A stretch of DNA of 64,000 nucleotides from Haplodiscus bocki (lineage: Eukaryota), in assembly GCA_965655095.1 (NCBI GenBank), contig OZ296659.1, positions 26,040,001 to 26,104,000 of the forward strand, read 5' to 3'. Under the pieces are notes generated by a model. It was not told the origin of the DNA. It searched no databases and saw only the letters and a program-made list of their open reading frames with translations. Of this stretch, positions 1-62,905 are shown in pieces. Both the position numbers and the translations under genes were made by a program. Within the stretch, counting starts at the first letter, position 1. Every line of letters starts with the position of its first letter.

Positions 1-3000
1 GATAAGAGAAAAATTTATTGACATACATGAGGAAAGTGAAAGTGATAAAGATGCCACAGGTTGTTCAAATGGAGATGGAAACCCTCAGAAATTATTGGGT
101 GACGATGAGCTGACTATGAATTCTCTTGTAGAGGATCAACTAACGAACAAAAATGGAAAAGGCAAGTGAGATTCATGTAGCGACGAACACGGCGAATTTA
201 TTCACAAAATCGAAAGAAAAATGACATCATCTAACCATGTCATATGATTTCCTCCTACATATAACAAACTGATGAATTGAATATTTCTGCTTAGCAGCGT
301 GATCTAATTCGTCTCAAGACCTCTTGAATGCACGACGTAATTTATTTTCCCTCGTCAAAATGCAATTTGATAGGCTACGATTGATCTGGAAGAACATTTT
401 AATCACTTCAAAATCAACCCGATGGAAAAAGTTTCCAGGTCAATGCAGCAAATCTACAATTTCTCGTTTTCCTGCTCCGAAGCCATCGAACTGAGCATCA
501 AAATTACATAAGTGTTTCAAGAAAGCAGTGAGCTAGAGCAATGATTACAGTGAATTCACAACATTATCACGGTGGCTAGTCTCAGCTCCGAATTTGTATT
601 TTAGTATCATAACTCCGAATTAAGAGTTGACACTCTAGTGAAGGCATGTTGATTCTATTTGTTTGAACTGAATGATTTTAATTGTTTCTGACAATTTTCC
701 CTTTAATTTAATATTTACTTCCCAAAATTTTCGCATTATGGCACCAATTTATTTCTTTTAAGTTAATCAATTTATTTTGAACTTGATTTCCGCATCAGAA
801 TTAGTTATTTTAAACGTTACGAAAATGATACCAAAGAAACTCCAGGTACGCTAATTTAATTCGGATTTATGCACTTCGTTTCCTCCTTTCGGAGCTATGA
901 AAATTCGGAGCTACGAGAAGTTACCAGGAACAGAGCCATCAGATAACGACTTTGTACGTTTTTAACATTATTGTAATTTTGTAAAAATTCAGTTTTTGGT
1001 TCACAAAATTCAATCCAACCTTTTCTATCTGATGTTTGATATTTCGGCTTCTTGGGTTGATCAAACAATCAATATGCTTAATATTACTGACCTTTGAATT
1101 ACGGAGACCATTCTGGTTCAAAAGAGAGGCCCGGAAACACACATACGCTGTGACAATAGCATTATTGACGCAGAAAATTCAGTTTCGATGGATTGCAGGC
1201 GACAAAGAAAAATGCCGGATACAACACCTAATTCGGACGAACTAAAAAACTTTTATGGGGCGTTAGTTCCAACGGGCTGCCGATTCTTCTTGGATGGGCA
1301 CAATCATAAAAAGGGATAACCATCGTTTCATTCCCAAAGTACATGATAAGAGAAAAATTTATTGACATACATGAGGAAAGTGAAAGTGATAAAGATGCCA
1401 CAGGTTGTTCAAATGGAGATGGAAACCCTCAGAAATTATTGGGTGACGATGAGCTGACTATGAATTCTCTTGTAGAGGATCAACTAAGGAACAAAAATAG
1501 AAAAGGCAAGTGAGATTCATGTAGCGACGAACACGGCGAATTTATTCACAAAATCGAAAGAAAAATGACATCATCTAACCATGTCATATGATTTCCTCCT
1601 ACATATAACAAACTGATGAATTGAATATTTCTGCTTAGCAGCGTGATCTAATTCGTCTCAAGACCTCTTGAATGCACGACGTAATTTATTTTCCCTCGTC
1701 AAAATGCAATTTGATAGGCTACGATTGATCTGGAAGAACATTTTAATCACTTCAAAATCAACCCGATGGAAAAAGTTTCCAGGTCAATGCAGCAAATCTA
1801 CAATTTCTCGTTTTCCTGCTCCGAAGCCATCGAAATGAGCATCAAAATTACATAAGTGTTTCAAGAAAGCAGTGAGCTAGAGCAATGATTACAGTGAATT
1901 CACAACATTATCACGGTGGCTAGTCTCAGCTCCGAATTTGTATTTTAGTATCATAACTCCGAATTAAGAGTTGACACTCTAGTGAAGGCATGTTGATTCT
2001 ATTTGTTTGAACTGAATGATTTTAATAGTTTCTGACTATTTTCCCTTTAATTTAATATTTACTTCCCAAAATTTTCGCATTATGGCACCAATTTATTTCT
2101 TTTAAGTTAATCAATTTATTTTGAACTTGATTTCCGCATCAGAATTAGTTATTTTAAACGTTACGAAAATGATACCAAAGAAACTCCAGGTACGCTAATT
2201 TAATTCGGATTTATGCACTTCGTTTCCTCCTTTCGGAGCTATGAAAATTCGGAGCTACGAGAGGTTACCAGGAACAGAGCCATCAGATAACGACTTTGTA
2301 CGTTTTTAACATTATTGTAATTTTGTAAAAATTCAGTTTTTGGTTCACAAAATTCAATCCAACCTTTTCTATCAGATGTTTGATATTTCGGCTTCTTGGG
2401 TTGATCAAACAATCGATATGCGTAATATTACTGACCTTTGAATTACGGAGACCATTCTGGTTCAAAAGAGAGGCCCGGAAACACACATACGCTGTGACAA
2501 TAGCATTATTGACGCAGAAAATTCAGTTTCGATGGATTGCAGGCGACAAAGAAAAATGCCGGATACAACACCTAATTCGGACGAACTAAAAAACTTTTAT
2601 GGGGCGTTAGTTCCAACGGGCTGCCGATTCTTCTTGGATGGGCACAATCATAAAAAGGGATAACCATCGTTTCATTCCCAAAGTACATGATAAGAGAAAA
2701 ATTTATTGACATACATGAGGAAAGTGAAAGTGATAAAGATGCCACAGGTTGTTCAAATGGAGATGGAAACCCTCAGAAATTATTGGGTGACGATGAGCTG
2801 ACTATGAATTCTCTTGTAGAGGATCAACTAAGGAACAAAAATAGAAAAGGCAAGTGAGATTCATGTAGCGACGAACACGGCGAATTTATTCACAAAATCG
2901 AAAGAAAAATGACATCATCTAACCATGTCATATGATTTCCTCCTACATATAACAAACTGATGAATTGAATATTTCTGCTTAGCAGCGTGATCTAATTCGT

Positions 3001-4267
3001 CTCAAGACCTCTTGAATGCACGACGTAATTTATTTTCCCTCGTCAAAATGCAATTTGATAGGCTACGATTGATCCGGAAGAACATTTTAAACACTTCAAA
3101 ATCAACCCGATGGAAAAAGTTTCCAGGTCAATGCAGCAAATATACAATTTCTCGTTTTCGTGCTCCGAAGCCATCGAACTGAGCATCAAAATTACATAAG
3201 TGTTTCAAGAAAGCAGTGAGCTAGAGCAATGATTACAGTGAATTCACAACATTATCACGGTGGCTAGTCTCAGCTCCGAATTTGTATTTTAGTATCATAA
3301 CTCCGAATTAAGAGTTGACACTCTAGTGAAGGCATGTTGATTCTATTTGTTTGAACTGAATGATTTTAATTGTTTCTGACAATTTTCCCTTTAATTTAAA
3401 ATTTACTTCCCAAAATTTTCGCATTATGGCACCAATTTATTTCTTTGAAGTTAATCAATTTATTTTGAACTTGATTTCCGCATCAGAATTAGTTATTTTA
3501 ATCGTTACGAAAATGATACCAAAGAAACTCCAGGTACGCTAATTTAATTCGGATTTATGCACTTCGTTTCCTCCTTTCGGAGCTATGAAAATTCGGAGCT
3601 ACGAGAGGTTACCAGGAACAGAGCCATCAGATAACGACTTTGTACGTTTTTAACATTATTGTAATTTTGTAAAAATTCAGTTTTTGGTTCACAAAATTCA
3701 ATCCAACCTTTTCCATCAGATGTTTGATATTTCGGCTTCTTGGGTTGATCAAACAATCAAAATGCGTAATATTACTGACCTTTGAATTACGGAGACCATT
3801 CTGGTTCAAAAGAGAGGCCCGGAAACACACATACGCTGTGACAATAGCATTATTGACGCAGAAAATTCAGTTTCGATGGATTGCAGGCGACAAAGAAAAA
3901 TGCCGGATACAACACCTAATTCGGACGAACTAAAAAACTTTTATGGGGCGTTAGTTTCAAAGGGCTGCCGATTCTTCTTGGATGGGCACAATCATAAGAA
4001 AGGATAACCATCGTTTCAGTCCCAAAGTACATCTTAAGAGAAAAATTTATTGACAAACATGAGGAGAGTGAAAGTGATAAAGATGCCACAGGTTGTTCAA
4101 ATGGAGATGAAAGCCCTCAGAAATTTTTGGGTGACGATGAGCTATGATTTCTCTTGTATGGGATCAACTAAGGAACAAAAATGGAAAAGGAATGTGAGAT
4201 TCATGTAGCGACCAACACGGCGAATTTACTCACAAAATCGAGAGAAAAATGACATCATCTAACCATG
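1..4267. repeat. Tandem array of a 1344-bp unit (>=3.2 copies, continues off the left edge)
   Basis: GATAAGAGAAAAATTTATTGAC recurs at 1, 1345, 2689 and (variant) 4033. Near-identical ORFs recur at 939/2283/3627 and 1036/2380/3724. Similarity ends after AACCATG at ~4267. Confidence 0.97.
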
Positions 4268-14750: not shown

Positions 14751-16734
14751 TTCATGCTACTCGTCTCAATTTTGGTATTTGAGACTGAATACTCAATTGG
14801 GAGATCTGTTTTCTGGTCGGAGGATTTTTTCAAAGTTCTTTCAAAATTGAAAGTTTCTGAAGTTTTTTTTCCACAATTTTTAAAGAGATCTCATATTAGT
14901 ACCAAAAAATCTACCTTTCGAAAGTTGAGCTGGAAGTTCTCTCATTATGATTTTTTTTGCCATTTTCGCCCAACTTTTCGGTTTTCTCAACCTAATCACC
15001 TTTTTGGAGTTGAATTTGACAAAATTCAAACCAACGAACATTTATCGAAAAAGATTGCAAATTTTTGGGAAAAACGAAAACTTTCGCACTTTCAGTTTAC
15101 GAAAACTTCCAGAACTTTGCTCTTTCTTTCCACAACTTTCACTCTTCTGCCTTATGAATCATAGTTTTGACAACGAATCAGCGTAAATCAGTGCCAAACG
15201 TTATTCGTCGAATTTTTTTTTCAAAATGTGAAAAGCTTTTTTTCCCCAGAAAATTCCGTTTTTAGGCTTTTAAAACACGCCGGAAGTAGCTGATTTCCCG
15301 ATTTTCTCAGAACTTTAGTCCTATTGCCTTCCAAATCAATTTTCCAGCCACAAGGCCCATTCAATACGAAACAAGCACGAAGATAGCTCAACATACCGAG
15401 AAGCTCTGAAATTGGTTGTTTATGACGAGTTAATTCGGTTGCTTGAATTAAATGAGAAATACTTTCATTATGACCTTAGCGGAACTTTCTCTTTCATCGA
15501 CTAACTATATAATTTTGTGTCTACAAGTGCAATAGAAATCAAAATTAGACGTCATATTTCGCAGCTATCCCTGAATTTTTTTAATATTGCGGTGACAAAA
15601 CGGTCGTTTTATGGGTTTTTTCAAGTTGGTAAGAATAGATCATTTTACTGTTTCAGCTCTCTGCCTTCCAAAGCAAATGTGATTACGTATACAGTTGAAA
15701 TGAAGGCTTTGAATTTCTCAGTAAATTGAATTCTTCTCCAAAGTGATTCACTTTGTTTTCCAGAATTCGTCAATATTGCTAAAGTTAGCGATTTTCGTAG
15801 AGAAGCCGTTCGTTTATCCTCGTTCTGGCGAAAATTGCATCAGATAGGAAAACACACCCGTCACTGCTGTAAACAAGTTCCTCCAGCCTCATTCTACTAA
15901 AACAACTGTTTTTTTGGTCAAGAGCTGCCTTCATCTGCACCAAGCGCACCTATGTTTGGTATAGTTTTGGAAGATTGACTAAAAACCTCATATGTAACAA
16001 ATGTAGCATGTTTCTTAGAACTTTTGCATTTTCTCAAGAGGAATTTTGCAGTTTTTGGCAAAATCCAAATTGAATTTTTAGACACAGACTGGCAATTTTT
16101 GTTTTTGAATGGTTTACAGATCTCTTCGACAATTTCGGAAAGTTCACCTTCCTTTCAAGTTCTTTTAATCCGTTATTGATTGGTACTGTTATCTCGAACT
16201 TTTGGATAACTGAGGAGTTTATTTTGCCAGATTTGCGAAGCTCCACGTCGCCTCTGTGTTAATATTGTACATCAAGGATCTACCAGACATTCAACATGAA
16301 TTGCACATGCTACAATCCGTTATACATCAGATGCTTCTTTGTTGACATACAAAGCCTCTCTCTGGATAAAATATGGATTCGCGAAACAGCTTGATAACTG
16401 AAACTAAGTCGAAAAGTGTTTCTCAAGCTCCACGTAGAAGCTCATAATTCAATATCGTCCACGAAATCAAGACGAAGACAATCATGAAAGCTGATAGACC
16501 AAATCAGCGCATGGACTCAAGACTTCCACTAATTTCACCGTTTTGAAATCTCTTGATTTTATAAACTTATGAAATAGTGTGTTTTCAGATTGAAATTGCA
16601 AGGGCAGCCGTGGTGGCCCTTTTATTGTCTCACATATACTTCCAAAGATACCTTAAGGTTTCAACGGAAGTCCTGCTCGTCTTATCTGGCCATCAACGAG
16701 ATTTCCCGTCTACTACGAAGCTGACACTGAGCAT

Positions 16735-17322
16735 TTGTTGATATCTGACTCGCAGACACACAGCGAGAAGAACAAGACCTGCCTCAACAGTGGAGTTGTG
16801 AACGTGCTGTCTCTACCAGGTGGCAAGATTCGACGCGTCTACGACTTTCTTCCCCCTCAAGGGAAATACAAGTCTGCATCGCTGTTCATTGGTCGCAACG
16901 ACTGTTTCGTAAAGGGCGGAGCCTTCTCTGAACAGTCACCCCAACAGATAGCTGAAGACTTGAAGACACTCGCCGACACGAGAGTCCCCAGAACCGGGCT
17001 GGTCCACGTAATCGGCATCCCCGAGCGCCACAACAAAAAAGAACGGACAGCCAAAGTCAACGAGATACTCGAGCGATTCAGTACCAAGGCAGACTGGAAG
17101 TACAGAAGTGTGTCGAAGTACATCTGGTCCCGCTATATCTCTGAAGACTCTGTCCATCTCACTGACGAAGGCCTCAAAAACCTGAAAAAACTTCTGAAAG
17201 AGAAGATTCTGTACAAGCTGTACGATATTGAACAGGACAAGAAAGGACCTCGGAAAGTCACCGTTTGCGGAAACGCCAAGCAGCCAGATTGTCTCTGCGG
17301 ACACTTCAACCCCCCGAGTTAG
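16735..17322 (+). CDS. SGNH/GDSL-type esterase domain protein of the LINE (ORF0)
   Basis: SGNH blocks LISDS, SLPGG, FIGRND and EDSVHL. The frame is open from 16657 with no ATG; ACG at 16696 may be a mutated start. Confidence 0.8.
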   Translation: MLISDSQTHSEKNKTCLNSGVVNVLSLPGGKIRRVYDFLPPQGKYKSASLFIGRNDCFVKGGAFSEQSPQQIAEDLKTLADTRVPRTGLVHVIGIPERHNKKERTAKVNEILERFSTKADWKYRSVSKYIWSRYISEDSVHLTDEGLKNLKKLLKEKILYKLYDIEQDKKGPRKVTVCGNAKQPDCLCGHFNPPS

Positions 17323-17537
17323 GTAAGTCGACTCTACAAGTATCAAATCTACCTTAAGGTTTTGCAGATACTAGTAATAGTAGACGGCCTATCCCTCGTC
17401 CCACGCATCCCAACCTGAAACAGGTCCACCTAGATCTCCGCAGATACCTTAAGGTTTCAAGAGGAGACCACTCATCTGTTTCTTGACATCTCACATCAAT
17501 CCCCAACTGAATCGACAAATCACCTACTTCGAAAACC

Positions 17538-18417
17538 ATGACTAACTGCAAATCCTGTAATCTCAAAGTCGGGTCACCAAAGAATGCATTCGTATGCTAC
17601 TTTTGTGGCTATAGTATGCACATGAACCAAACGTGCACAGGATTCGAAGAAGACCAAATCAAGGTTCTGGTACAACTGAAGCAAAACCTGTTAAGGGTGT
17701 GCAACGATTGCAAAAGCAAAAAGTCACAAGCCCCCAGTAACAATGCTGCCGTTAAGAACAACAACGACGACTTGGCAGCAAATGTAAAATCCCTTGAGAA
17801 ACGAATGAGCGACTTCCTTCTATCTATGGAGAAGTCAGCAGCAGCAGTTGAAGACCTCAAGACAAGTGGCTAACATGAAGAAACCTGCAACCGAGACAAA
17901 CTGCGCAGGAAGTTACGCAAGTGTCGTCGGAAACAAAGCCCCAGGAAAAAGAGTCTATAAACCAGCAAATGATAGCCTGGGTATACGCATCAAAGGTCTT
18001 CCTGAACCAGAAGATGGCAAGGAGGACAAAATGAAGGACCGAGAAAAGGTCAAAAGGATCCTAGACCATCTGGACATTCGCTCATCGTTAACGAAGCTCA
18101 CCCGAGTTGGACAGCCAAATCCAGACAAAGGGCCCCGCACTGTCATTATCGACCTAGACAACGATCTTGACAAAGAGGTCATGATAAAGTCGGCACACAA
18201 ACACAAACTAAAGACATACACTGAACTCAACAGCACGATCTTCATCAGTCACGAACTGACAAAGGAAGATATGGCAAAAGAAAACGAGCCTCTTAAACTG
18301 AGGAGAGACCTCATCAAAAAGGGAGTAGTCTCTCAAACCTTGAGAATTTGAAATTTGAAGCTCCAACTAGTCGAAGGTGTCTGGACAACTGTCTCGACAG
18401 CTGAAGAGAACAAATGA
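17538..18417 (+). pseudogene. LINE ORF1: PHD finger, coiled coil, RRM-like domain (frameshift ~17850, premature TGA at 18349)
   Basis: CKSC..CYFC....H....C..CNDC, SYASVV, IRIKGLPE, TRVG...PRTVII, IFISHELT; joins track ORFs 17538..17873 and 17848..18351 and continues to TGA 18415-18417. Confidence 0.88.
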
Positions 18418-21278
18418 CTAGCTTCCGGAGAGTCAAGAACAGAAACTACAAAAACTCTGCACATTTTAACTTTCAACGTGAGAAGTATTCTCAAACCTGA
18501 AAGGCCCACTCTCTTTGCAAATGCCATTTGCACATCTGACTACGACATGCTGTGTGTCACCGAAACTTGGCTCACATCGGATGTCCCAAACACCGCGCTC
18601 TTTCTCAAGGAATACGCAATCTACAGATCCGATAGAACCAGCTCCTCTATGATAACAATTCACGGAGGAGTCCTAGTTGCAGTAAAAAGTATTCCACATG
18701 AAGTCATTCCAACCGACCAGTCGGACGAGATCATTGCAGTGATGGTTAAAACCGAACAACCGCTTCTAGTGTGCTGTCTGTACAACCCTCCCCACTACAG
18801 CCCCTTTCGATGGCCCCGAACTAAATTTGACAACCTCCTGACTTCGCTCAAGCGTCATCAAGAACAACTGAACTGCCAAACAACAATTATCACTGGTGAC
18901 AAAAATTTTAGCAAGACGTCTTGGGACTGCATGGAATCCAGGGATGATTACGAACAATCAATCCTGGATCTTTTGTGCGAACATGGATACAGTCAACATT
19001 TCAACCAAACGTCGAAACGTCAATTAGACGTTCTGCTTAGTAACAAAGATGACGACTTTTTTGATTGCAAACTAGACAGAAAAATCTCAACAAGGTACAA
19101 CGTGTCAGACCACCTCGCATACTCAAAAACAATGCACACAAAAATAGAAAGGAAATACCTAGATCCGAAACACAAGCAATATAGCCTGAAAAGGGCAGAC
19201 TGGGATGCTTTTGTGGACGCCACTGAGTGTCGCCCATTCCAGCCCTACTGCTACAGCAACGTCAATGTCCTCATACAAACATGGTACTCTTGGCCAAACA
19301 AAACCATGGATGAAAATCTCGAAAAAGTCACCGCGCACAGAGCATCACAGGCACCCTGGATATCGAAACACACATCACACCTGAAGAACATACTCCAGAC
19401 CAAGAAAAGAGCGAAGAAGAAATTCAGTGTCGCACACTCAATCAAGATTAAAAGACTGGAGAAAGAGATTGAGGCCTCCTGTCAAGAAGATCTTAGAATC
19501 TACGAAGAGACTCGATATTTTAGTCGAATCCAGAAATATCTGTCGTGCATACGCAAAAGCCCGCCCTGCCAAATGAGTTTCATTACAAGGGAAAGATCGG
19601 AAAAACAGAGTCGGAATGTGCAAACATGTTCAACAGCTTCTTTGTTAGTGTCTTTAACCAAAAAGACACCAACTTCCAGCCCAACTACCGCCGCAAAAAT
19701 CTAAACTGGTTCAGAATAAAACAAAGAAGGGTGGAAGCTCTGCTCGAAGACCTGAAAATTGGAATATCGTCAGGACCAGATAAAATTGGGAATATCCTAC
19801 TCCGAAACGCCGCCAAAGGCCTCAGCAAATCCCTGACCCTACTCTTCCAAACAATCATCAACAAAGGGACCTACCCAAATCAATGGAAGTTCGGACAGAT
19901 CTGCCCAGTTTTCAAAGATGGCGACAAGAAAGACGTTACGTGCTACAGGCCCTTAAGCCTACTGAGTTGCATCTCAAAAGTACTCGAGAGAATCATATTC
20001 GATGAAATTTATCCTCTAGTTCAAGAAAAACTGCACACGAAGCAGTTTGGTTTCCGAAAGAAGAGGTCAGCCACCCTCCAACTACTTTTGTTCCTGGACC
20101 GGATATACAAATACAATGACGACAATGAGGTAGAAAATCTAAGTGTCCTGTACCTAGACTTCTCCAAAGCATTTGACACCGTCCCGCACTCGAGACTCCT
20201 CGATAAGGTCCAGAACTTCGGTATTGGTGGAAAGCTCCTCAAACTGGTCCACAGCTACCTATCAGATCGCAAACAGTTTGTTAAAATTCGGAACACATTA
20301 TCAACGCCCCTAGCGGTAACAAGCGGAGTCCCCCAAGGCTCCATTCTCGGCCCCCTCCTTTTTCTAATGTTCATTAACGACCTCCCGGAAAGATTCGCAG
20401 AATGTTTTGGCTACGCAGACGATTATAAACTCATCTTCACGCAACAAGAAGAGTTGGAGAACGGTACCAAACAGCTTGAAGAATGGTGTGAGCTGAACGA
20501 AATGAAACTCAACGAGAAAAAGTGTAGCTTATTAGTTATAAAGGGCGACATGTCTGCCCAGTTGAATGATGTTAGCATCAATCAACCATCAGTTCAAAGG
20601 GACCTCGGTCTTTTTGTGGAGAACGGTCTGGGATGGAACGAAAACTGTTCAAGACGCTCGGCAAACGCCCTCAAGGCCCTTTTCAAAATCCGACGTAATG
20701 TTACAAAGAAATGCAATATTCAACATAAGATCCATGCCTACACAGGGTACGTAATGCCAATGCTAACGTATGCATCGCAAGCGTATCACCCCAGCATCGG
20801 GTCATTGAAAAAACTTGAAGAAGTTCAGAAACAAGCCACAGCCTGGTTCCATGGATACGACATCAGCTACAAATGCAGACTTATAAAAAGCAAACTGTTA
20901 CCGGTATCTCTGTACATAGAGCTTCACGACGTTCTCTTCCTACTCGACCTTCTGGAACAGAAGATGGACATCGAACACAGTGAATTATTGTCTGTGAGAC
21001 CCTGCTCGAACACCAGGCAGGGCGATCGGAATGAAATGGTCGTAACATCCACGAGGACGAAGAAAGCTGATGAAAACTTCGTAATCCGCGCCAGTCAACT
21101 GTACAACATCCTCTCTCGCCACATGAAGCAACTTAATGAACCTATGGACAAAGAACACCTACTTGAAGCTTACTGGAAGTTCTTTCTAGATCAGTACAAC
21201 GAGAAGGTATCCTGCACATGGCGTATACTTTGCCTCTGTGGCTACTGCAACCCCCAAGGCAAATTAAAATTACCTTGA
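18418..21278 (+). pseudogene. LINE ORF2: APE endonuclease + reverse transcriptase (one frameshift ~19565)
   Basis: TFNVRS, VTETWL, GGVL, LYNPP, SDH; GPDKI, YRPLSLLS, QFGFR, DFSKAFD, GVPQGSILGP, YADD, RDLG. Confidence 0.96.
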
Positions 21279-45466: not shown

Positions 45467-47186
45467 TGTCTTGCCGGGTACGTGCGCGGCTAGCAGACGC
45501 TTCACTGTTCCCAGCGGATTCCAACTCAGTCCGACCCGTTAATAGAGCACAAAAATCCTCTCTTCGTCCGAGGATTGAGTCAGTCGCTTGTTTGATTCCT
45601 TCGTCAACCGATCTAAGCGTCAATTCAACGGCGAATGTTTCAGTCCCTCACGGGTCAACTTCTGGTTCTTGCTTGAGTCTTAAGCCAATCGTAACAGAAG
45701 AACTACAGAGCGTCTGAGTGTCGGCTTCGGTTCCGCTGCTCATTAACTAAACAAAATGCTCGTTAATGTTGAAATAGTGAATTTTAGCCTAAATTGATGT
45801 GTATTTAAGGTCAGTGTGGTATTGAAGTGAGCAAAATTACAAGTGTACAAAATACTAGAGTCAGAATGAGGTTATTGTTAGACAAAGTTGAGGAGACTAT
45901 AGCTTCACGAACTTGCGAAACTTACATATAGTTTCGTATGTAGCAGAGTAAAACTGGTTTTGTCGTGGTCAGTGATCAATCAGGGTTCTGTCGAGGTTGG
46001 TTGCACGGAGGGGTGGTGGCTTCCTTGCGGACGCAATCAGGTCTTATGACTATTTGGGTGCTTCGCATTGAAACTCACATTCACACCCAAACTGCATAAT
46101 ATCTACTAGCACCGATTATCCTTCTAACTGACGCATTTCTAATAACGTACTTCCATTTATAATTAAACTGTGTGGTTTCGACCGCACTGATGATGTATTG
46201 ACAGTATTTTTGGTTGCATCAAAAAATATTCCAATTTTAAAAGCACCAATTTATAATGATGGTAATTGCCTGGAGAATTGAAATGAGGATAAGTACGGCT
46301 GACTGTAATTGATCGTGTTTTAGCACTGGCGAATAAACACTTGAAATAATGCAGGCAATACGTCTAGCACACTTTAGAGATTTGCCAGCGCTTGTTCAAT
46401 TAAATAGCAGTGGAGTGAAGTCTGCAAGAGCTCAATCTCAACATTGCACTACTGCTGCGGTGGAAAATGGACATTCGAGTGTGAGGTGTGATACGGTTCA
46501 CTCTCGATGATGAATTTTGTTGAAGTTCAATTGTGACTGCACTCTGAATGCTGTGTATAATGGCTCGGTTTAAACGATGGTTTCAATGAAAGTTGGTACG
46601 ACCTGCATTTATGGAGTCAGATGTTTGTCGGCTCACTCTAATCAATAATTTTCAATTTTGTTTCACTGAAGTGAAGCATATTGCAGCTCGCTTCCAATTG
46701 ATGAAAGTTACTGGAGAAAGACGGTTGAGTATCACGGTGATGATGTGTAGTAAAGCTCACTCGTATTAAAGGATTACGAATTACGTGAATCTGTTGCGTT
46801 TTAGAGTGATGTGTGTTGCGAACCACTCTCGTTTTCAAAATCAATGGTTGGCAATATAACTGCAGTGAAGTGAGGTGTGCTGCACTTCACATCCGAGTGA
46901 TTATCTAATTCATGGATTATGGTGCAGAGCATGGATAGCATCAAGTGAGGCATGATTTATCTGATTTTTCACATTCATGAATAAAACATATTCGGGTTCA
47001 TATCGTTGGGAGTTGGGAGAAGAAGTAGTATTACATAATGGCTTTTAAATCGAGTGTTTGTAATGCTGAATATGTTTGTTTGTACTAGGTGATACTAAAT
47101 AGATGTAAGTACTTTATATTAGGACATAGGCTAATTGCATAATAAGATTGTTTGGATCGTATTTCCTGCATGCGAGCATTATGACA
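45467..47186 (-). mobile_element. Solo LTR (1720 bp) with 5-bp TSD CTCGT
   Basis: CTCGT|TGTC...GACA|CTCGT. Carries a gag-like ORF from ATG 45743 that runs out of the LTR. Confidence 0.9.
46413..46892. repeat. Array of GAGTGA-N13-TCACTC palindromic units, period ~66 bp
   Basis: Units start at 46413, 46479, 46614, 46669, ~46738, 46804 and 46868. Confidence 0.8.
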
Positions 47187-50700: not shown

Positions 50701-53229
50701 GACCCCGCCACATATGAAGTCATTCGAACAAATGGTGCAATTCGTATCATGTGCTATTAAAAGACCTGAGCTAAACTTTGAAAGTTATGAAACCTGCGAA
50801 TAAAAATTTTTCTAATCGACGAGAACATTACCAATTTTAGAATCGTCTTTTCGGTGGTTTCTAATTGGCTAGGATTTTGTGGCTTTCGTTTTGGTTCAAC
50901 AGCCGATTTCTGTTTCTACGGATGATAGTGACCTCAAAAAGAAAGTATTACCTTCAGCTCCAGGAAACACAGCTACGAGGGGTCTGTCAGCTCTGTTGCT
51001 GTTCTTTCTGCATCTGAAGCCGTTGCCCACCGCAACCTTTTACGACTCTCCAATCTAGGTGAGATCTTTGTTTTAGAAACGTCCCCTTCTAAAATCATCT
51101 TGGGGCACAGGGGTATTGCTGAGGTGACTTCCAAAGTATTTGACGAGTTTTGTTGTATCTGCTCCAATATATTTACCATGATGTCCTCCATTTTTCCCAG
51201 TGGTCTTTGAGGTGTTCAAGTTGAAAAAAACTCAGATTGTCGCCCACTCCTGTTAAGAGCTGACAGACCTACCCGGATTGAAATAATGGTCGAAATTTTT
51301 CCGGTATAAAGGCGTTAACGGCGTTTTGCTAGTAAATTAGCGGCATTAGCGGCGTTTACGCCACTATACCGGAAAAATAGCGGCGTTTTACCAAAAAGTT
51401 CGACCCAAGTATTGCTGTGGGCCCTCAATGGACTTTGGGTCAAGCCAATGGTCTCTTCGTTTTGGTTAAGGGACCTTTCGTATGTAGATGCAGATGCTCC
51501 CTTTCTATTGTTGCGGTGATCGCAGGCAGATGGTGGGCCATAGACGAGCTGATCTCATTTGAATTTGGAGATATCTTTAAAGTCAACTTTGGCAATTTCT
51601 CTGCGCTCCACTAGATCTTCCAGGGTCATTTCTGGAGAGATGCGCAGCGTTTGCCAAAAATCCATTGCTTCGTCACGCAAGAGACTCTGCAAATAACGGA
51701 GTTTGTGCTCGTCAGTGATGCGATTCTGATGCAGTCTCAAGTGATTGAGTAGAAGATTTTAAAACCTGTGGAACTTGTCTTTGGAACTGCTGAGTTTTGA
51801 AACCTGAGTGTAAAGCATTCGGGCTTGTGCTGTGTTTTATTGAAGGATATAACGCAACTTGTTGAGGGCTCTGACGACGTGATACATGGGTGAACTGGTG
51901 ATATGATCAGGCTCAAATTCAGCGTCTTCCAATATGAGAGGTCGTTGTTGTCTATTGGGTTGATGAATTGTGGAGGTCATCTGTTCGTGCTGTCTCGTCA
52001 TCGAATTCATTTTCCCTGTTATCTTGTCAGGACGCGAATTCATTGAGGGTCCTGTTATCATGACAGACCTACTGTTGTGGGCCCGCGATGGACTTTGGAT
52101 CAAGCCAGTGGTATCTTCGTTACCTCTCAGAGGGACTTGTCTGAGCTCGGTAGTCGCCTTGATTTCTCTAGCTACCTCTTCAGACGTATTGGGGTGCTTA
52201 AACTACTAGCACTGTTGAAGCCCCTGGTTCGTTACCAGTCAAACTGCGATTTTCATCACCAGTTTTAGTAGTATTCACTGCTTCATCGATTGGGGTGTTC
52301 ATTTCGGTACACAAAAAATTAGTACGAAGTTATTGTTTTGAAATAGTTTTAGTGAGGTTACAAATTTGGTGCCAAATTTTTGCAAGATGAATTGAGCTGT
52401 ATAATGATGTCTGGTCTTCCTGACAGATGGTAGTGTCGCGTAGTGTTTAGGTAAACTGAGTTGTGTCGTTGCTGATTGTATATTGATGTTATTGCGTGTC
52501 TAATGACTTGAAATTCCTGTGCTGAGCGATCAATTAACGATGTTTGGTCAAGTGACACTATGCGGAACTAACATTGGTTATTTGCTTTGGCACTTTCCTT
52601 AACACAACGCTAAACCAGCCTCAATTCCATTATATAGCCTCAGTTACAGTTTGGGCTTCGATTGGTTTCACTCTGATGTCTTCTGATTGTGGTGGCGATA
52701 ATTGTTTTATATGGCAATCATTCATGATCAAACGGCTCAAAATACCCTTCTAATATTGAAATGAAACTATGGCTGTATATCACGAACGACGCACTTCGCT
52801 AATCAACGCTCAACGATGATGCTTGGATCAGGAGTGAAATATTTAATTCCTAGTACGAAAATGGAAGCTCGCTAAACTAAATAAATTATAGTGCAATGAA
52901 TGGATGTTGTTTAACAATGTGCCTGTAACGTTTCACTAGTGTTATGACAAGCAACGTAGTGTTAGCGTATAGTAGTGCACTACGATGTCGATGTAGCTCA
53001 CTAGAATACATATAAAACAAAATCACGTTCATAACTGATTGGAAAGAAATACTAGTACATAGAGGCGTTCATATCGTGTTGTGCTTATAAAAATGCATAA
53101 ATTGCTCATATTTTGTGTGCTAATAAGTAGCAAAAGGGTTTCATTCATATAAAATAGGCTTTTTGCATAATCATATTATATTGTTCATATTTTCATCCTG
53201 CAAGGGCATGACAGCAGCACTTTATGACG
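47780..53229 (-). mobile_element. Decayed Gypsy element: 5' LTR (~52238-53229), PBS-like site (52221-52237), gag (~52302-51415), pol (~51200-48200)
   Basis: TGGTAACGAACCAGGGG follows the LTR end; gag HKLRYLQSLLRDEAMDFWQTL; KYAY RT remnant; integrase-like remnants. Confidence 0.7.
51268..51414. mobile_element. Short MITE-like palindromic insertion related to 44255-45016
   Basis: TTTTTCCGGTATA...TATACCGGAAAAA inverted repeat and TAGCGGC/TAACGGC repeats; interrupts the Gypsy element. Confidence 0.5.
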
Positions 53230-57932: not shown

Positions 57933-59655
57933 TGTCGCAGCGTGTCTGCGAGGCATGCGGGAAAGTTCTTCCAATAGGAAAGGAAATTTCTACAAAATAA
58001 ACTGAGACTCAATAAAGATCAAACTTTATCATTATTGCTTCCATGTAAATAATACGTATATCTATGTATCACCTTTTCAACTCTCAAATTGTTCTCATGC
58101 AATTAATACGAACTGTTCACGGAGTATCTCTGTTGTATTTCATATAATTGATACGTAGCAGTTACGTAGTACATCCCTGTATAATTTCATGTACGCGATA
58201 CGTACCCTCTACGTATTAATTCCGGTGTACTGATCCAAATTGGCACGGAACCGTTACGGAACAAAAACGAACAATCACTTGATTTTACGTGTCAATCTAT
58301 GTTTCTTGAGAGGTGCTTTATTTCTAACTAATTTGTGTACTTATCAATGCAAATCCACTTTTTCAGAAAATTAGTGCTGTAATTGTTAGTGAAAATGACA
58401 ACTTCAAAAAGTTTGCATTAAAAACAACTGCAGTTATAGAGCGTAGCTTCAGAAGTGAGTACTTGTTTCGTACGTGTTCCATCGTTACCAATCTGGTGAC
58501 GTCACTTGAATTTCATTCCGATCTGTGCTATTATGCTGTGACATTTCTGGCCAACCACGGAACAGTTCCGTATTCATCCATTCTCACTCCGATAGCAGCG
58601 CTGCCATAAGCAGTGCTACAAGAGGTTACGGAACCGTTCCCGAACGTCTTGTAGAAAGGAGGAACAGATCAGTATAAAAGTCTCTGAGCGATGCGCATTG
58701 AGACCAGATGTACATTTTAGCATAAAAACATGAGTTCCTTGTATAATTTCATTTAATCGAGTGAATTTAGAAGTACCTTCTTATTATGGGAAAAACATTT
58801 GAGCACTTTTCTGTATTAATATTTACTGTGTCGGCGTGGAAATAATCACTTTGATGCCCTTTTCTGACGGATAAGTATCATATATTTTCCGTGAAAAGAT
58901 GGAAAAGACGCCGCCTATGAGGGAAAAAATGGATGGAAAGGTTTTTTTCCCACCAGAGTCGGCATTTTTTGTCTTTAAATTTATTATGATTGAAAGGCTT
59001 TTCCCTATTTGTACCTTAACTTGGCGGTTAAACAATTATGTTCCCCGTAAGGGAAAAGATACGAATTGAAGAAACGAAAGTACCGTTATCATTGTGGTCC
59101 TTATATACCACTATACAAACAACATTGAATAACTTTGTTCGACTCATTTGACTGTTAAGGACTGGAAACTATTTGTTCATAAAAAGGAGAGACTCTACAT
59201 TATCGATGTACTGAAAAATTGTCCTTAAAACACAAATAATTCAGTATTCACCTCTGTTGAGCTTTTTTCCCAAAGATAGTAACCTTGAGGAAAAATCGGA
59301 AATTAGCAGCTGTGTCAAGGAAAACACATGAGTATCGTAAGAACAGGCGGTGGCGAAACCCATCTGCTCCTGGCATCACTGAGGAATCTATAGCACAAAT
59401 TTTTGAAGAGATTGAGGGCAGAGTCACTAAAAAACTGTCCCAGGAATTCAGCAGGACAGAGTCCCGCCTCGTAGCTGCTCAGTCCAAACTGGCCGAAACT
59501 CTATCAAACCCACATGTACGGACAATCTCAGGAACCGTTCCGGGAATATCCCGAAACATTGACGTAGAAAAGCTGAGTATCCCATCCAGAAAAGGAATTC
59601 TTTGCCTGTTGTGCCAACAACCTAACTGATTCAGACCCGGAGGAGACCTCTCACA
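57933..59655 (+). mobile_element. Solo LTR (1723 bp), TSD ATTAC/ATTTC, with internal gag-like ORF 59285-59629
   Basis: TGTCGCAG start shared with the 54006-55892 LTR, ...TCACA end, 4/5 TSD match, TATAAAA at ~58673. Confidence 0.85.
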
Positions 59656-61222: not shown

Positions 61223-62905
61223 GGTTGTTCTGGTTGTCCGCTGTGCTAGTCGACACGTCATCAGTTTCTGAATCGGAGCGTCGGTGTTTCATGCGGTGTT
61301 CAAATCAGTGCGTTCTGCCAATAAAGCGCAAAGCCTCGCAAATTGTGGGACGATTGGATCAGTTCCCAGTTTAATCTGTAAATTTGTCGATTGATGAGTG
61401 ACTTCACCAGCAGAGATTCCGTTTATTGTGAGTCCAGATTTCGTATTTGTCCGCGTCTCAATTCAATGGTGTCCGAGGAGCTATCAAGGGTTCGCTCGTT
61501 TTTTTCGGCTTCGCTAATTTTTGACTAGGAATAACTAGAATTACAATTCTAGGTGAATTTTTAAATCAAATGTTCAGTGAATGGATTTAGCGTAATCTTT
61601 GAAGAGAAATATTTCGTTTAAAAATATACAAAATTGATTGTCTAAGTGACTTAGTGCTCATAACTAAAGTAAAAGGAGGGTTTTTTGAAAATAGTAGCTT
61701 AAAGGGACTGTGGCTTAATTGCCGACGAAATTAAGTCACGTGACAATTTCAGCGCACATCATTGGAGCTCACTTTCACTCCTGTACATACTTCATCAAAT
61801 AGCATCATTTATATCTGCACTTATCGGCTCTCTAATACACCAATTTATTTTACAATTTAACTACCTGATGTGACCACACGGCTGATGTTAAAATGACCTC
61901 ATTGATCTCATCGTATATTCATTTCACTGTTCTTCGCTTCAGGTAGCGTTTGTTTTAATTTGCCTAATTGACTACAAACAGCTTGTGTAGGACTCGCTCT
62001 AATTGAACGTGTTTACTCGGCACCGAGTAGACGGTTGTTTAAAATATTGCTAATTATAAATTCAGCACACTTCAAAACAGTTCCCGAGCTGATTTAAGTG
62101 AATTGCCTTAGATTGAGGTCTGGTAGAGCTCACTCTCAAAATTAAAACCTCTGCTGTGGTGGACAAGGGATATTCGAGTGATAGATGTGGCACGACTCTG
62201 TCGATGATGAAATGTTTGTGATGGTAAAACATGACTTCACTTTTAGTGAGCTGTTCCATGGCTTACTCTAAACTATGAAATTTCGAGGTGATTACTTCTC
62301 ACAGCACCTTTGAGTGAGGTATGAGACGGCTCACTCTCAACAATGAACTTTCAATTTTGTGTCCGTTAACAGGTCTGATGTGATGCGTGGTATAGCTCAC
62401 TTCCAATTGATTGGATTTGTTGACTGTGAAATTAAATAGCAGTGGAGTGATTCGTGGTAAGACTCATTATTATTTACTGATTCTGGTTCATGTGAACATA
62501 CTGCGTTTAGAGTGAGGTGGGTCACGGCTCACTCTAATTAGTGAAGGTGATGGTGAATGATTTAGCTGCAGTGAAGTTAAAGTGATTTGTGTTTTACGTC
62601 ACTTTCAAATGATCTTCTAAATTATGTCTTATGGTGCGTAGCTGGAACGGCGTTAAGTGAGATGTGTTTAGCACCCTTTTCCACTTGTATATAGATCGCA
62701 TGATCGCGTTCATAAAATTGAGCAGGGAAGTTAATTCACATCGTGGTTTTCCTATCAAGTATATGTAATGCTGCATATATTTGTATGTTTAGTTTATACT
62801 AAATTGTTGTAAGGGCTTATAATAGGGCATAAGCAAAGTGCAAAATGCATTTATAGTATGTTAGTATTTCGTTCCTGCTATTCTACTGCTGGGGTTTTCA
62901 TGATG
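61223..62905 (-). mobile_element. Solo LTR related to 45467-47186 (ends eroded)
   Basis: Shared ORF remnant (LCALLAERTDL vs FCALLTGRTEL), shared repeat array and spacers. Confidence 0.75.
62111..62604. repeat. Array of eight GAGTGA-N13-TCACTC palindromic units, period 65-70 bp
   Basis: Units start at 62111, 62176, 62244, 62312, 62378, 62445, 62510 and 62580. Confidence 0.88.

Follow-up and report, generated by a model that had tools for sequence, protein, structure and literature searches.

A tandemly duplicated array of interrupted palindromes in the U3 of an animal Gypsy LTR: predicted protein-binding sites behind a CRISPR-like appearance

CRISPR arrays alternate a palindromic repeat with spacers of near-constant length, and a pattern of this appearance occurs inside an LTR of Haplodiscus bocki, within the 64,000-nucleotide stretch of contig OZ296659.1 analysed here (the window). 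What kind of array is this, how did it arise, and what could have kept its palindromes in place? An earlier note, made from the letters alone, described a CRISPR-like architecture with variable spacers unlike one another. It held that the array is not a CRISPR locus, and proposed either a selected array of dimeric protein-binding sites or RNA stem-loops that punctuate a transcript. The coordinates of all features are collected in Table 1.

The eight units of about 25 nt named in that note were recovered, with starts at 62111, 62176, 62244, 62312, 62378, 62445, 62510 and 62580, i.e. 65, 68, 68, 66, 67, 65 and 70 bp apart. The inverted arms that it ascribed to seven of the eight are present as well (5-7 of 7 arm pairs intact), unit 2 being the eroded one. 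Its unit count is incomplete, as the array has two further, degenerate units at ~61975 and ~62655; the first of these, unit 0, is well preserved in many other LTR copies, unlike its degenerate focal version. Unit-to-unit identity in the focal array averages 59% (range 32-84%). The dyad core of the unit profile is GTGA...TCAC, with a half-site that may resemble T-box or paired-domain sites; the core is not free, its left part being conserved across positions (cross-position identity up to 0.84). Unit-profile scores above 12 were obtained in the two LTR copies of the window and nowhere else in it, and a three-dyad pattern matched 75 places in the genome as against 0 for the reversed control. The array is therefore not a product of chance, and its reality, as claimed earlier, is confirmed. 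Tandem Repeats Finder reported no array at this position, which excludes a homogeneous minisatellite. The 20 loci obtained by pattern scans from metagenome contigs and the 4 from viral contigs are unrelated tandem repeats, mostly homogeneous and without similarity to the LTR.

Table 1. Features of the window and of related element copies (positions are those of the window unless a locus is named)
Feature	Position	Strand	Remark
Tandem repeat	1-4267		~1344-bp period, about 3 copies, 98% identical
LINE	16657-21278	+	GDSL-esterase and zinc-finger-like ORF1 pieces, endonuclease, RT
Second solo LTR, same family, subfamily B1	45467..47186	-	perfect 5-bp TSD (CTCGT)
Array units 0-9 in second LTR copy	46281..46967	.	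one period shortened to 55 bp
Dispersed repeats	52519-53151 and 59300-59571		match flanks of L026 and L015
Decayed solo LTR (~1.66 kb), Gypsy retrotransposon, subfamily A (focal copy)	61223..62888	-	U3 begins at high coordinate
TCACGTGA palindrome	61736..61743	.	downstream of array in LTR sense
Outlying unit 0	61975..61999	.	136 bp from unit 1; degenerate in focal copy
Main array	62111..62604	.	8 interrupted-palindrome units of 25 nt and 7 position-specific spacers of 40-45 nt
Degenerate unit 9	62655..62679	.	75 bp from unit 8
Antisense gene pieces (probably exons)	L097:1-3569, L096:9121-9900, L105:781-4550, plus L048 and L102 equivalents	-	pol-3' LTR interval

The carrier of the array is a dispersed repeat of ~1.66 kb whose copies start with TG and end with CA. 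In 11 of the 22 distinct copies with both ends placed, 4-5 of the 5 flanking bases are duplicated (~2% expected by chance), and in the second window copy all five are; the TG...CA ends and the duplicated flanks identify the copies as solo LTRs. Purine tracts beside some repeat ends led to full-length copies. In L049 a PBS-like TGG, assigned as PBS by position, follows right after the LTR end, and in L048 a purine tract (PPT) abuts the start of the 3' LTR. Read across L049/L048 as one full-length copy, the LTR and PBS-like TGG are followed by a gag zinc knuckle, by remnants of protease, RT, RNase H and integrase, and then by ~6 kb of 3' region, the purine tract and the 3' LTR. A scan of 41 ORFs taken from loci with the element placed zf-CCHC (E 0.001) and rve (E 1e-5) in this order, both below Pfam's cut-off, and the protease, RT and RNase H motifs of the full-length copy were read by eye in broken frames. 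Database relatives bear RVT_1, RNase H and integrase, and the domain order of an intact sister-family pol matches. The carrier is thus a Ty3/Gypsy LTR retrotransposon with gag-PR-RT-RH-IN order. A non-autonomous DNA transposon, with a short terminal inverted repeat and a 5-bp TSD, was also considered and rejected, as the full-length copies have PBS, PPT and pol. From the PBS and PPT it follows that the LTR reads on the minus strand of the window. The main array lies ~285-780 nt from the LTR 5' end, i.e. within U3, in agreement with the U3-side location given in the earlier note.

The two LTRs of the window are ~62-65% identical. That they belong to one element was rejected, since their subfamilies differ and the second has its own TSD. 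Both termini of the focal LTR are eroded and no TSD is left; every copy of the family seen is old (pairwise identity 46-86%), and the focal solo LTR, likewise old and decayed, gives no indication that it still functions. The TCACGTGA word recurs together with CCAAT as short clusters in the sister families D and E, and the combination is presumed to be an E-box/proximal promoter. Among 35 sampled LTRs, seven (L057, L059, L062, L065, L069, L078, L079) have an identical 17-nt U3 start without the array and belong to other families; that of L079 has its own short repeats with CCAAT. At L054 (G000:C3:112995200-113004600), several rearranged or partial LTR copies form a cluster in which the array order is altered.

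The nature of the spacers was resolved by aligning 69 LTR copies (35 of subfamily A, 10 of B1, 22 of B2 and 2 unassigned), after 5 duplicate loci, the expanded locus L030 and 15 loci with no or a partial array had been set aside. When each spacer was assigned by leave-one-out to the position it resembles most (67 copies, three subfamilies), 444 of 447 fell at their own position, and 400 of 447 still did so when only the other subfamilies were used. Identity is 0.65-0.73 between spacers of the same position, 0.46-0.61 across positions and 0.44-0.48 after shuffling (222/238 spacers, first 39 copies). Within the focal copy alone, spacer-spacer similarity is weak (mean z 0.85), with spacers 2 and 3 standing out at z 3.2. 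The family profiles reveal kinship more clearly: z exceeds 3 in 13 of 45 pairs in subfamily A (2-3 at 7.9, 3-5 at 6.3, 3-7 at 6.0 and 2-5 at 5.7) and in 7 of 45 pairs in B2, while spacer 1 has no detectable kinship to spacers 2-7 by profile comparison. The mutual dissimilarity of spacers asserted earlier is therefore not borne out. A limited comparison with other DNA matched 0 of 413 spacers to 611 kb of non-LTR sequence.

The number of units alters by duplication or loss of whole unit-plus-spacer monomers in the middle of the array, and ranges from 5 to ~18. The extreme case, L030 (G000:C2:3567218-3570534), has about 18-19 units, including 12 tandem copies of the unit-plus-spacer-3 monomer, and several other LTR copies have two copies of monomer 3. 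The L030 monomers are 65% identical to one another as compared to 67% among copies at different loci, which dates the expansion to roughly the time of the insertion; a search for another copy of it found none. Subfamily C (L116-L130) has shorter arrays of 5-7 units, and in several of its copies two units are just 30 bp apart. The array thus arose via repeated tandem duplication of a ~66-bp monomer.

Fixation by position, mutual homology and mid-array monomer duplication together lead to the rejection of spacer acquisition. A CRISPR-like memory, in which spacers are taken from other sequences and processed into guides, has in its favour the superficial architecture of palindromic repeats, near-constant period and spacers that look dissimilar within a single copy. 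Its repeats are, however, just 59% identical on average instead of near-identical, with position-specific variants fixed across copies, and the spacers are inherited and homologous instead of unique and acquired at one end; neither acquisition nor polarity is seen. Of the 30 ORFs in the window that reach 120 aa, 29 were scanned; neither these nor the 41 ORFs from element-containing loci include a cas family. Such a memory is barely conceivable here and already largely refuted; the statement that this is not a CRISPR locus holds, while the CRISPR-like framing by variable, unrelated spacers does not.

A tandem origin raises the simpler explanation of a neutral old minisatellite decaying within the LTR, with which the age of all copies is also in keeping. 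This explanation is opposed by the way in which the subfamilies diverged from one another. Net divergence between A and B2, with decay within subfamilies subtracted, is 0.056 [0.013-0.115] for the arms, 0.12 and 0.31 for the left and right core, 0.30, 0.54 [0.40-0.75] and 0.24 for the 5' part, middle and 3' part of the spacers, 0.09 for the U3 start and 0.33 for U3 downstream of the array; the A-B1 and B1-B2 comparisons rank the regions alike. The arms are about tenfold less diverged than the spacer middles, with non-overlapping intervals, a contrast to be read with the knowledge that recruitment of copies by array similarity raises arm identity and that poorer alignment of the spacer middles can inflate their divergence. 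Periods of 64-69 bp are held position by position, except in one B2 subgroup, where two are shortened by deletions of 11-13 bp, and in some C copies with an added 30-bp period; the main periods are not whole helical turns. Selection during element replication hence kept the dyad arms, nearby bases and the 64-69 bp period, while the spacer middles drifted. The partial conservation of the spacer ends suggests that more than the arms may matter. Neutral decay is very improbable, and the array is, as proposed earlier, unlike an ordinary decaying minisatellite.

Whether the conserved dyad acts as DNA or as RNA can be judged from its pairs. Across all 30 classes formed by subfamily and position, each of the arm pairs 4-6 keeps one pair type; 13 of the 30 have a fixed mismatch at pair 7, and 23 have at positions 8/18 a conserved G/G, a combination unable to pair. 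Of 3514 cells 31 are compensated, with 31.7 expected; this count is governed largely by neutral decay that followed insertion and carries little weight alone. The invariance of these letters, including the unpairable ones, favours a dyad bound on DNA over a structural RNA. According to the competing explanation the units form stem-loops in RNA, either near the 3' end of the element transcript, in its untranslated part, or in an antisense transcript, and serve processing, packaging or small-RNA production, as has been suggested for the palindromes of Sireviruses. The array does fold better than its shuffles, and the outermost pair 1 is G-C in 14 classes and A-T in 10. Such a switch is expected of an RNA stem, but a dyad site on DNA could show it too, and the classes are not independent of one another. 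Folding in 12 copies is, however, equally good on the two strands (mean z -2.6 vs -2.7), the window array giving z -1.8 on the element sense strand and -2.9 on the antisense, and an Rfam search gave a single chance row (E 0.52) and no match above chance. Sirevirus palindromes are siRNA hotspots and form hairpins according to the available text of PMC4728375, which lends the RNA explanation some plausibility. With inner arms that do not covary, it is nevertheless considered improbable, and neither arm covariation nor strand bias supports punctuation of a transcript by stem-loops. The other proposal of the earlier note, a selected array of dimeric protein-binding sites in U3, is supported for predicted sites by arms that are under purifying selection and invariant without covariation.

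The array is therefore regarded as probably a cis-regulatory module of enhancer or insulator type in the U3 of a Gypsy LTR, with dyads predicted to be bound by protein. A sequence-specific protein in dimeric form would most likely occupy each dyad on double-stranded DNA, and the sites in their row may act cooperatively on LTR transcription or chromatin. The array of the 3' LTR is located ~0.7-1.2 kb upstream of the antisense gene of the element, where it could play a similar role.

The closest designs come from other retroelements, compared here as far as the available texts of the sources describe them. Sirevirus LTRs have at least 8 dyad motifs, beginning 200-400 bp into the LTR and running for 300-500 bp (PMC2829016), and the arms of these palindromes are more conserved than the centre, with hairpin and siRNA associations (PMC4728375). 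The present array is comparable in its interrupted palindromes, their number (8 main units, 285-780 nt from the U3 start) and their place in the upstream half of the LTR; family-specific sequence, arm conservation and a cis-regulatory interpretation are common to both. Sireviruses are, however, Ty1/Copia elements of plants, whereas the host element here is a Gypsy of an animal. The array also has a GTGA...TCAC dyad instead of CGG-CCG core symmetry, a longer 25-nt unit, a regular ~66-bp period and fixed positional spacers, and the array family lacks a second cluster in the element interior. In the Drosophila gypsy insulator, variable spacers separate 12 Su(Hw) sites (PMC2374998); that array is in the 5' UTR and its sites, bound by the host protein Su(Hw), are not dyads, in contrast to the dyads in U3 here. 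In its presumed mode of action the array is comparable to the motif arrays of Sireviruses or to an insulator array, yet it belongs to neither. Neither this array nor, for any animal Gypsy element, an antisense gene with a BED-like finger is described in the literature searched, with Repbase, Dfam and most subscription journals outside the scope of the search.

That finger gene bears on the identity of the binder. Full-length copies of the array family and of sister families have antisense reading frames between pol and the 3' LTR. Between the young L097 and L099, pS of the antisense gene is 0.72-0.80 and pN 0.18-0.24; its dN/dS is 0.40-0.49 among the broken copies of the array family and 0.20 against family E. 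These ratios indicate that the gene is under purifying selection in the array family and its sisters. It encodes a motif C-x2-C-x16-H-x5-H, intact in L097, L099, L101 and L112; the homologous finger segment of the array family is eroded in all three copies. The segment is modelled as two strands and a helix; a separate model of the finger alone has a pLDDT of just 46. Ligand spacing and secondary structure fit a BED or zf-C2H2_12 finger (C-x2-C...H-x3-5-H, two strands plus a helix). The nearest named atlas clusters are the hAT-transposase-type fingers zf-C2H2_12 and zf-BED, a lead only at scores of 0.85-0.88, and on this lead the finger may be BED/hAT-like. Pfam has no match to the antisense gene or its finger, hhalign of the finger against a host zf-C2H2_12 match gives a weak probability of 5.6, and fold searches with a 181-aa model returned no clear match. 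In the PDB sequence search nothing was significant, the sole zinc-finger row being a matrin-type finger at E 1.6; matrin-type fingers often bind RNA. A finger HMM was near-blank on host fingers and is uninformative, as the array family's own copies also score non-significantly. Longer fused forms were searched for and not found, which is weak evidence.

A young and abundant sister Gypsy family was also observed (L096:744-2551, L098:858-2735 and L100:1083-2865; LTR pairs 99.9, 99.9 and 97.4% identical). It has a 1653-aa open pol frame in L096, a gag frame that begins inside the LTR, and a PBS start identical to that of the array family. Its U3 bears a cluster of interrupted palindromes, GCACGT-N7-ACGTGC, with constant arms, variable loops and irregular spacing, numbering 6, 7 and 4 in three LTRs as against at most 2 in 40 shuffles. 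Both its finger and its U3 dyad are unlike those of the array family.

It is conceivable, then, that the zinc-finger protein encoded antisense in the element itself binds the dyads, and that protein and sites co-evolve within an activating or anti-silencing loop specific to each family. The position of the frames, the selection on the gene, the finger motif with its modelled fold and hAT-type leads, and the joint difference of finger and dyad in the young family point in this direction. So does the distribution of the array, which is present in 6 of 10 elements whose finger is 48-67% identical to that of the array family (the remaining four lack that part of the LTR or have it beyond the stretch retrieved) and in 0 of 10 with a finger 38-45% identical. 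That association may nevertheless be simple shared descent. The 802 database relatives are not independent, one matching the Haplodiscus bocki genome at 99%, and are probably drawn largely from this or a very close genome. The weak identification of the finger also speaks against a self-encoded binder, as do the finger-bearing families D and E, which have short TCACGTGA/CCAAT clusters and no periodic dyad array, and family F, in which k-mer counts revealed no enriched word or array. No third young family with another finger and dyad was obtained, the searches being saturated by one abundant family. On balance, such a self-regulating loop is possible but unlikely. If the array is a cis-regulatory module, a host factor is the better candidate binder, with the antisense protein not far behind it; overall, too, the host factor is rated somewhat higher.

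A fuller version of the self-encoded binder, which is rather doubtful, would have an animal Gypsy lineage capture a hAT-transposase-type finger gene and express it in antisense, starting on the side of the 3' LTR. The protein would then be a dimeric activator or anti-silencer, specific to its family, of the palindrome arrays in the element's own U3, with finger and dyad co-diverging between families as in VANC systems. According to the available text of PMC5735166, the motifs bound by VANC proteins lie in the transposons that encode these proteins and have multiplied through tandem repeats. VANDAL elements and the present families resemble each other in an extra TE-encoded protein, conserved here as the antisense gene. 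They may also be alike in short, tandem-multiplied motifs that differ between related families: the array family has its tandem-duplicated array and the young family a different dyad cluster, with no array seen in D, E and F. VANDAL is, however, a plant DNA transposon in which binding was shown, whereas the present element is a retrotransposon with dyads whose binding is hypothetical. Retand/Grande Gypsy elements of plants have antisense ORFs proposed to encode DNA-binding regulators, their function being an open question in the available text of PMC11963269. The long region between pol and the 3' LTR (~6 kb in the array family) with conserved antisense ORFs is common to both; theirs encode a TRP28 domain and the tandem arrays lie inside the element, as compared to a C2H2 BED-like finger and an array in the LTR here. 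A preprint (10.64898/2026.08.24.746577), in its available text, argues that transposases are intrinsic sequence-specific regulators.

A retroelement that builds a regulatory array by tandem duplication and retains only the predicted binding sites is a design familiar from Sireviruses of plants and from the gypsy insulator, and the present array offers a clean, quantified animal case of it. It also illustrates that a CRISPR-looking pattern can arise without any spacer acquisition. More is at stake in the antisense zinc-finger gene, as the role of conserved antisense ORFs in Gypsy elements is open according to the available text of PMC11963269; a self-encoded regulator, if true, would be a transposase-derived protein with cognate LTR arrays in an animal retrotransposon. 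The young, intact and abundant sister family supplies a candidate DNA-binding protein together with candidate sites, which makes the question directly testable.

The remainder of the window holds a LINE that is presumably CR1/L2-like, a type in keeping with an animal and probably invertebrate host, together with the tandem repeat and the dispersed repeats entered in Table 1.
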